64,000 bases of DNA from Haliotis cracherodii. Its lineage: Eukaryota. The notes below the pieces were generated by a model. The model ran no database searches and had not been told where the DNA came from. It saw nothing but the letters and a program-made list of their open reading frames with translations. Every line of letters starts with the position of its first letter. Position 1 is the stretch's first letter. Shown here piece by piece: positions 14,476-15,793 of the stretch. The stretch covers positions 48,298,001-48,362,000 of the forward strand of contig NW_027266266.1 of NCBI RefSeq assembly GCF_022045235.1, written 5' to 3'. The translations under genes were made by a program, and so were the position numbers.

Positions 14476-14649
14476 ATGTTCCTCACGTTGTGTTGGATGT
14501 TGGCGTTTTATCTGGAAGAAACACGTGTTTGGAGAGAGTACCATCAAGTGTTGACGCACCTCCGTGAAGACTTGGAAAGAAACAACAACAACAACAACGA
14601 ACAGAACATCCGGACAACATCATGTCGAACAACATGTCGAAACGGTTGA
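14476..14649 (+). CDS. Possible 57-aa small protein (MFLTLCWMLAFYLEETRVWREYHQVLTHLREDLERN...)
   Basis: First ATG after promoter copy 2; hydrophobic N-terminus followed by a helical segment; overlaps the next ORF. Confidence 0.3.
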   Translation: MFLTLCWMLAFYLEETRVWREYHQVLTHLREDLERNNNNNNEQNIRTTSCRTTCRNG

Positions 14650-15793
14650 ATGACAAGACACAAAGCGACATGAGTGGCCAAGGAAGCAGTGGAGATGGGA
14701 GCGGTGAAATGACTGCTGAACTGTGGGGTGAAGTGTACGACTTGCTGTGTTTAAAGATGAAGACCGACGACGCGTACGCCAAGTTACGTGCGAAGGGCGA
14801 CGACATGATGTGCGAACAGATACGTTCAAAGATGAGGAAGCTGACTGAACCCCAGAAAGGAACATCGAAGAAGACGATAAAGAAGATCCAGAAGAAAAAG
14901 ACGAGCAAACCCACAGCAGTTGTTGTCCCCACAGGAGCAGCAGCAGCAACACCCACCACCACCACCACCACCACCACCACCACAGCGCCAGTCACCACCA
15001 CCACCACCACCACCACAGCAGCCACAGCAACAATTGCAGCAGCGACAACAGACACCGAAACGATGGGGACATCCTTTTTGAAACCTGCAACACCTGAAAC
15101 GTCTGCAAAAAGACGATCACGGAAGAAATTATCTCTGAAGATCTCTCCTCAAGAACAGCTGTAAGTACCCTGCTCTTCTTTGTCTCACTCATTCTTGATG
15201 TGATGTTGATGTTGATGATGATGATGATGCCGATGTTGATGATGACTATACCTATGCATATGATGAATGGACTCTGTCCTATGATTGACAGGACCCCTGA
15301 TGTCAGTTCAGCCCAGACCGTGCTAGAACAGTGGTGGGAACAAACCCTTCGGGAGCCCACCTATTCACCGAATGCCCCTGTGACGATGGCGACGGGTGAC
15401 CTCGATGATCATGAAGCGCTCAAGCTGGCCACTCTCCCTTCCATGGATCTGGACACGCTCCCCCTGCTTGAGGCTTCTTGGTCACCAGCATCACCGGAAG
15501 ATGTTCATGTCTACTCCTCAGGTATGCCCATGGTTTGCGATGATGATGATGATGATGATGATGATGACAACGTTGACCTGGATCCTTATGGAGAAGCTCA
15601 ACTCACTCCCCTACAACGCGAATGTAGTACCTGCCGACACAACAACATGTTAAGATACATCAGTTGCAACAGCGGGCAAGTGATGTGTCATGTCTGTGGT
15701 CTGGAGCTCATAGACTGTACTTGTATGTTGACTTATGACAAGTATGATGACATGCCTATCGCATCTGAGGATCACATCTTATGGTACCGGTGA
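14622..15793 (+). CDS. Spliced two-exon gene (14622-15160 + 15292-15793, 346 aa): basic/Thr-rich N-half, acidic region and C-terminal CxxC...CxxC zinc finger (E1A/E7-like architecture)
   Basis: Donor CT|GTAAGT at 15160/15161 and acceptor TGACAG|G at 15291/15292 join in phase (CT+G=Leu); the intron removes the (GAT)n run that gives a spurious poly-Met start. Confidence 0.7.

Follow-up and report, generated by a model that had tools for sequence, protein, structure and literature searches.

The window analysed here is a stretch of 64,000 nt from the genome of the abalone Haliotis cracherodii (assembly GCF_022045235.1, contig NW_027266266.1, positions 48,298,001 to 48,362,000), and all coordinates given below refer to it. 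The target gene, encoded on the forward strand between 14622 and 15793, sits in a damaged and deleted Polinton/adintovirus-type element of about 9.5 kb, which is bounded by inverted repeats.

The host element

The left terminal inverted repeat (9046 to 9313) comprises 268 nt, is 99.6% identical to 18262-18528 and is apparently cut short on its outer side. The right terminal inverted repeat extends from 18262 to 18827; hereby, the match to the left repeat covers 18262-18528 and is followed by 39-nt repeats. These tandem 39-nt repeats (18512-18827) carry CCGGAA boxes and GCCATCTT boxes, the latter of which we take to be YY1-like, as well as a TGACGTCA site, and have no counterpart on the left side. 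The ACTACT at 18822 may be a terminal hexamer and possibly marks the end of the element.

Between the repeats lies a protein-primed DNA polymerase B (10559 to 14126, +; PF03175, E = 1.1e-34). The polymerase is present in three pieces (10559-10987, 10988-11737 and 11436-14126) with an open 5' end; the last piece contains the catalytic motifs, and a VSR-like insert was recognised by eye. A terminal-repeat remnant of 76% identity (10560-10631) is found exactly at the start of the polymerase frame, which suggests an internal deletion or rearrangement at the repeat. Moreover, a basic, NLS-like segment of 48 nt occurs at 81% identity both in the N-terminal region of the polymerase (11525-11572) and at the end of the zinc-knuckle ORF described below (18013-18060).

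The accessory ORFs of the element are, apart from the target gene, a single-BIR (IAP-type) ORF (16529 to 17059, +; PF00653, E = 1.6e-19), a CCHC zinc-knuckle ORF (17542 to 18099, +; PF00098, E = 5.6e-12) and a small Cys-rich ORF (9321 to 9662, -), an orphan of 113 aa with CxxC pairs of its own and no Pfam match above the cut-off. The small ORF was considered as a paralogue of the seven-Cys module of the target gene and rejected as such (E = 23). A CCAAT-rich module, whose function as a promoter we infer, is located in front of the target gene (14176 to 14387, +) and again at 9711-9975 (-) and 17306-17490 (+), in front of the small Cys-rich and the zinc-knuckle ORF, and precedes in this way three different accessory ORFs. 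The copies measure about 185-210 nt and are 78-92% identical. Two of them end in TATAAAA; the copy at 14176-14387 is devoid of TATAAAA and diverges downstream. This pattern suggests a portable promoter cassette by which the accessory genes may be co-regulated.

Protein-primed PolB and long terminal inverted repeats identify the element as belonging to the Polintons/adintoviruses. It is a derivative and not a complete Polinton: 46 frames between 9040 and 18830 reach at least 90 aa, and in the 45 compared with Pfam (some of them taken from the first Met) no integrase, ATPase, protease or capsid was matched; while Pfam may miss capsids, the unassigned stretches are shorter than 600 nt. Jeong et al. 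report mollusc pPolB2 Polintons, H. rufescens included, with a length of 13-25 kb (10.1101/2023.08.22.554363 / PMC10748475). Our copy shares with them the PF03175 pPolB, the VSR-like insert, the long terminal inverted repeats and an abalone host, whereas it measures only about 9.5 kb, contains a broken polymerase and yields no match for integrase, ATPase, protease or capsid. Relatives of its PolB were confirmed in 15 of 47 cases in metagenome contigs (26-40% identity) and in none of six candidate stretches in viral contigs; a relative of the target gene or of the other accessory genes was found on none of the 15 metagenome contigs.

Elsewhere, the window contains an apparently intact Gypsy-type LTR retrotransposon (33737-39279, +) with a PNMA-like gag and a 1438-aa pol, which comprises protease, RT, RNase H and integrase, a host gene to the left of the element (6619-7320, -) that encodes a DXD glycosyltransferase (PF04488), and a host gene for a TRIM-like B-box/coiled-coil protein (61426-62673, -).

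Splicing of the target gene

Coding exon 1 (14622 to 15160, +) encodes an N-terminal segment with a Thr/Ala microsatellite linker and with basic patches, NLS-like by composition, which are present in the N-terminal half as the earlier note on this DNA had described. In its long form, coding exon 2 (15292 to 15793, +) encodes an acidic Ser/Pro/Leu-rich region, the sequence MVC followed by ten Asp, a Cys module and the stop. Intron 1 (15161 to 15291, +; GTAAGT..CAG) is 131 nt long, in phase 2, and has the borders CT/GTAAGT and TTGACAG/G. Joining the 539 nt of exon 1 to the 502 nt of exon 2 yields 347 codons, the last of which is the stop after 346 aa. Among 14 GT..AG pairs tried (donor 15050-15164, acceptor 15170-15399), four preserve the frame. 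Since two of these use a donor that matches GTAAGT at 6/6 positions, the sequence alone is suggestive but not decisive between the acceptors 15291 and 15306, and the choice is settled by database models.

The product of the joined ORFs corresponds to RefSeq XP_071092807.1 (P0038), a H. cracherodii 'uncharacterized protein' of 342 aa, which consists of exon 1 from Met5 (the second Met, at 14634), one junction residue and then exon 2 letter for letter. It is the best match (100% identical) among four longer relatives of exon 2 that were obtained from 458 candidates. The intron 1 join is the same in 40 of the 52 close models among the matches listed, shows 3-6 extra residues in seven and is absent in five. 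Hereby, it has to be considered that RefSeq models are predictions and that the 52 models, which all stem from H. cracherodii or H. rufescens and in which the largest cluster (37 members) is represented by only 15, are not independent, because they comprise near-copies, isoforms of one gene and P0038 itself.

In addition, contigs of four of 24 runs (X1, X2, X9 and X15), which we presume to be RNA, were compared. The GT..AG joint of 15160 to 15292 is present in one contig of X1, with a short side of 52 letters, and in none of X2, X9 or the large run X15; one X2 contig (15144-15357) passes unspliced over intron 1. Since these runs share at most 0.42 of the words of the window, they stem from related copies and not from this copy. 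Single contigs with non-GT-AG joints between 14300 and 16200 (e.g. 15369/15383 to 15847 and 14626 to 15294) probably represent deleted paralogues rather than splices. The 3' end is marked by a poly(A) signal, ATTAAA, and a poly(A) site (16085 to 16105, +): one X2 contig bears an untemplated A-tail at 16105, 20 nt past ATTAAA.

Intron 1 is a real splice. The join of two ORFs into 346 aa, which the earlier note had proposed together with a search for its junction in RNA-type data, is thus backed by XP_071092807.1, by 40 of the 52 models and by the one contig with the joint in the four runs compared; the gene is not 'hidden', as that note had called it, but already annotated in RefSeq.

A second, alternative intron (15522 to 15864, +; 343 nt, GTATGC..TTTCAG) is a feature that the earlier note overlooked. 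Once it is spliced out, MVCDD is lost together with the acidic run and the Cys module, and the product terminates in G-R-P-stop. The corresponding GT..AG joint is found in runs X2 and X9, where its short sides measure just 24 and 21 letters and render it less reliable. In the 52 close models listed, 27 keep the segment (long form, about 342-346 aa), 24 end in SSGR[PS] (short form, about 237-250 aa, without the acidic stretch and the Cys module) and one does neither. Each of the two close subfamilies contains long as well as short forms (TPD, 19 long and 20 short; IDR, five long and two short), and none of the eight distant homologues described below is a short isoform.

In all five IDR long forms, the acceptor sequence (translated as FRE) forms part of the region that encodes the module. 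In the copy studied here, the tail of the module is duplicated: the first copy codes for the Cys module, and a degenerate second copy with in-frame stops (15847 to 15940, +) keeps the intron 2 acceptor. The splice switch has thus been kept through a duplication or rearrangement of the tail, which suggests selection on the switch but does not prove it. Transcripts with a stop close to the last exon junction escape nonsense-mediated decay; the short form should do so as well, because its stop lies about 10 nt past the last junction.

The cysteine module and its homologues

The seven-Cys module (15623 to 15724, +) has the pattern C-x2-C-x-H-x8-C-x6-C-H-x-C-x6-C-x-C and constitutes the conserved core of the family. 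The arrangement CSTC-x17-CHVC, on which the earlier note had focused, is present, but the conserved set comprises seven Cys and not four. This set is complete in 21 of the 27 close long forms, the remaining six models being truncated or lacking one Cys, and in six of the eight distant homologues, so that the check on the putative zinc ligands turned out in favour of their conservation. The eight distant homologues represent about three or four lineages; P0060, which has no C-terminal module, is left out of them. Over 50 aa, the module is 63-77% identical to that of H. rubra and other distant homologues, compared to a whole-protein identity of 22-29% to most distant homologues (exceptions: P0015 with 46%, at a short length, and P0060 with 14%). 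Judged from these alignments, conservation among abalone species applies to the module and not to the xCxD motif.

A profile search against 1.84 billion representatives yielded seven matches, and through these the distant homologues from H. rubra and H. asinina were reached; P0059, one of the seven, was dropped as spurious, being a repeat protein without the module. All homologues with a species name are from Haliotis. For the module, Pfam gave no significant match, and none to E7 or E1A, the PDB sequence search returned zero matches, none of 16 candidates in viral contigs carries the Cys module, and atlas searches gave no usable match (the best scores, 0.87, did not reach the lead threshold). 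Both predicted models are poor (pLDDT 51 and 59), and Foldseek with these two low-confidence models provided no significant match, which does not speak for a new fold. For the N-terminal segment, the similarity to P0062 of H. rubra is not significant (E = 0.043); the basic-then-acidic charge order is also found in the distant homologues. P0041 (H. rufescens, 547 aa) combines a H. rubra-like N-terminal segment (E = 1e-5) with a C-terminal half of the close family and may be a chimeric or intermediate form.

The CxxC-x17-CxxC spacing fits the C4 zinc ribbons of the TFIIB/A2L type. If the module were such a ribbon (TFIIB/A2L(VLTF3)-type), the protein could be a transcription initiation factor of the viral type or mimic TFIIB/Brf1 as a decoy. 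Besides the spacing, a weak Pfam match to A2L_zn_ribbon (PF08792, E = 0.24, below the cut-off) points in this direction, as do Foldseek rows that include ribosomal large-subunit chains, the Pol III initiation chain 6f40_V, TFIIB (1pft) and poxvirus RAP94, all of them, however, non-significant (E at least 0.35) and obtained from a low-confidence model. In contrast to TFIIB and poxvirus A2L, the target has three further Cys and two His conserved beyond the C4 set and no cyclin-fold core of the TFIIB kind downstream; the Gly after the second CxxC is replaced by F, E or C in homologues, and no match to this family is significant. We regard this assignment as unlikely.

Alternatively, the gene could be a decaying passenger; the long form would then stem from a retained intron or from faulty prediction, and both forms would by now be without function. 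This would be in accord with the damage to the element copy, i.e. a polymerase in pieces and no match for integrase, ATPase, protease or capsid, with the six of 27 paralogue models that are truncated or lack one Cys, and with the unspliced X2 contig across intron 1. However, across Haliotis species the module is much better preserved than the remainder of the protein. This copy also retains an open frame, an A-tail is found 20 nt past ATTAAA, and both isoforms persist in two subfamilies; we consider mere decay unlikely.

The MVCDD motif and the acidic run

The supposed Rb motif, MVCDD with the acidic run (MVC and ten Asp), is located at 15530 to 15568 (+), where the run is encoded by a GAT microsatellite. 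The earlier note had reported an LxCxE/D-like motif followed by an acidic tract, placed between a basic half and a Cys module as in E1A and E7; motif and tract are present as described, and the order stands, here in a Polinton/adintovirus setting. The distance between the Cys of the motif and the first Cys of the module is 29 aa, similar to the distance between motif and zinc Cys in E1A and E7.

Starrett et al. (2021, PMC8502044) define oncoids by LxCxE with a CK2 site after it, by paired CxxC and, optionally, by CR1; according to 10.1101/2024.03.25.586562, the class rests on short motifs alone. Affinity for Rb depends on acids at -1 to -3, on a hydrophobe at +2/+3 and on a C-terminal acidic stretch, the latter raising it (10.1101/2022.06.10.495386), and LxCxD can bind Rb, as in LVCGD of HCV NS5B (PMC12197514). 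The target protein could accordingly be a true oncoid, in which M/L-V-C-D-D and the acidic run would act as a weak LxCxE mimic on the Rb pocket of abalone, the module would resemble CR3 of E7 and intron 2 would toggle Rb binding. Domain order and the 29-aa spacing are consistent with this idea, as are the NS5B precedent, the acidic stretch C-terminal to the motif, the LVCDD of 13 of the 27 long forms, the occurrence of oncoids in adintoviruses (PMC8502044) and the BIR gene that adjoins the target gene.

The 27 close long forms carry LVCDD (13), MVCDD (10), MVCND (3) or TVCDD (1). While LxCxD is therefore found in 13 of them, LxCxE is found in none, and the same holds for an acid at -1 to -3 of the motif and for a CK2 site, (S/T)xx(D/E), within the 20 aa after it, where an acidic run of 4-11 residues in paralogues stands instead; the +2/+3 hydrophobe is present in two. 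CR1, (DEN)(LIMV)xx(LM)(FY), is absent from the 27 close and the eight distant sequences, and none of the eight distant homologues, which keep the module region, has [LIM]xCx[DE] before the Cys module. The earlier note had itself named missing conservation of xCxD as evidence against its reading, and for the motif this is what was observed; its inference of Rb binding is not supported.

Chance was considered as well. A bare [LM]xCx[DE] arises in 17.7% of 20,000 shuffles, and [LIM]xCx[DE] is present in four of ten unrelated control ORFs of the window. The motif with two more acids appears in only 0.46% of shuffles, which favours an oncoid, although shuffles understate chance here because the acidic run is a GAT microsatellite. 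One of the four matching control ORFs is the zinc-knuckle ORF (17542-18099, +) with a perfect LxCxE, LYCPE, which is probably due to chance because its Cys is the last ligand of the C-x2-C-x4-H-x4-C knuckle (assigned by eye). No E2F-type site was found in the element, compared to nine in the window, which speaks against an oncoid.

In a tree of 32 proteins with midpoint root (P0020, 107 aa, left out), the Leu form makes up one nested clade with a support of 87/86, and 84% of the bootstrap trees need one Met/Leu change. Since the Leu clade is nested inside Met-bearing lines under this root, Met is not a decayed Leu. The LVCDD forms represent one nested recent clade, located in the largest H. 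cracherodii cluster. A further reading is that an E1A-like early regulator would have evolved independently in an abalone Polinton, its conserved splice switch yielding a long form with a so far undescribed seven-Cys metal-binding module and a short form that lacks it. Within a single H. cracherodii subfamily that expanded recently, MxCxD would be giving rise de novo to an LxCxD motif for Rb binding, next to an acidic tract of microsatellite origin. We consider this very unlikely.

By the sequence features that define the class, the protein falls outside the oncoids for LxCxE, CK2 and CR1 and has only the paired CxxC in common with them. The supposed Rb motif is probably a look-alike. When it is also taken into account that the short form loses the motif here, whereas both major E1A forms inactivate pRB (PMC2999850), a true oncoid appears unlikely.

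Discussion

We propose, with a probability of about one half, that the target gene encodes a nuclear accessory regulator of a Polinton/adintovirus-type element with a splice-switched metal-binding module, which is present in many copies in Haliotis genomes. Hereby, nuclear import would be mediated by the basic patches. The module would bind zinc, with one C4 ribbon-like site and extra Cys/His residues, possibly two ions in all, and would dock on host transcription or chromatin factors. The choice of splice form would set the ratio between an active long form and a short form without the module, similar to E1A 289R and 243R with respect to CR3. Such a regulator would likely drive or tune transcription within its own element, where three genes have the promoter module in common. 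Action through the LxCxE cleft of Rb is probably not involved.

To evaluate activation, we applied the acidic activation-domain rule given in PMC10550315 (eq. 1; 39-aa tile, charge <= -9, WFYL >= 7). It selects nine of 27 long forms, none of 24 short forms, three of eight distant homologues and none of ten control ORFs, with a precision of the rule itself of only 0.18-0.32 according to the same source; the protein of this copy contains zero such tiles. A looser rule, which this copy passed, matched eight of ten proteins. Support for activation is thus mixed.

The best reading is an E1A 13S/12S-like organisation of splicing in a protein that would be no Rb-binding oncoid and whose function we infer. 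Like adenovirus E1A 289R/243R (13S/12S), the target would be a nuclear protein of a pPolB lineage in which alternative splicing keeps or takes out a Cys-rich module that has an acidic region in front of it. Unlike in E1A, the switch is one of intron retention that removes the motif too, the basic patches lie N-terminal to the module, and there is no sequence or significant fold similarity. The CxxC pairs also differ: E1A CR3 is a C4 site with x13 and papillomavirus E7 has x29, compared to seven Cys and x17 in the target. In E1A, the 289R form has CR3, and the short 243R form lacks both CR3 and transactivation (PMC2999850). Papillomavirus E7 likewise consists of a disordered acidic stretch and a C-terminal Cys module, but has only about 100 aa, compared to 342-346 aa, and the target has neither its LxCxE nor its CK2 site (PMC12197514). 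With the oncoid-bearing adintoviruses and Polintons (PMC8502044), the element has a pPolB with inverted repeats and an IAP gene in common, and the protein an acidic tract and paired CxxC. It differs in the lack of LxCxE, CK2 and CR1, in a motif that is not kept in distant homologues and in its two introns; moreover, oncoids typically lie upstream of PolB in that source, whereas the target gene lies downstream of it, in a damaged copy.

The gene is annotated but uncharacterised and belongs with the accessory genes of Polintons/adintoviruses. In the literature searched, a coverage that leaves out most subscription papers, it is not described; 'Haliotis' does not occur in the accessible part of the PMC8502044 supplement, and the PMC10748475 supplement has H. 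rufescens only in a figure legend. The feature of note is the conserved splice switch over a Cys module without family match.

Hardly any accessory gene of the animal Polintons has been tested, and proteins are called 'oncoid' solely on the basis of motifs. The target gene shows how this type of label may not withstand a comparison of homologues, while a sturdier feature, the splice-switched Cys module kept in several abalone species, is overlooked. If Rb binding were true after all, endogenous Polintons would be connected to the control of the host cell cycle in molluscs, and if LxCxD had arisen anew, the birth of a tumour-virus-type motif would be visible among endogenous copies. If the long form is a transactivator, a germline element of a mollusc would have converged on the arrangement of E1A 13S/12S, and dozens of 'uncharacterized' or 'mucin-like' abalone models would be explained as element genes.
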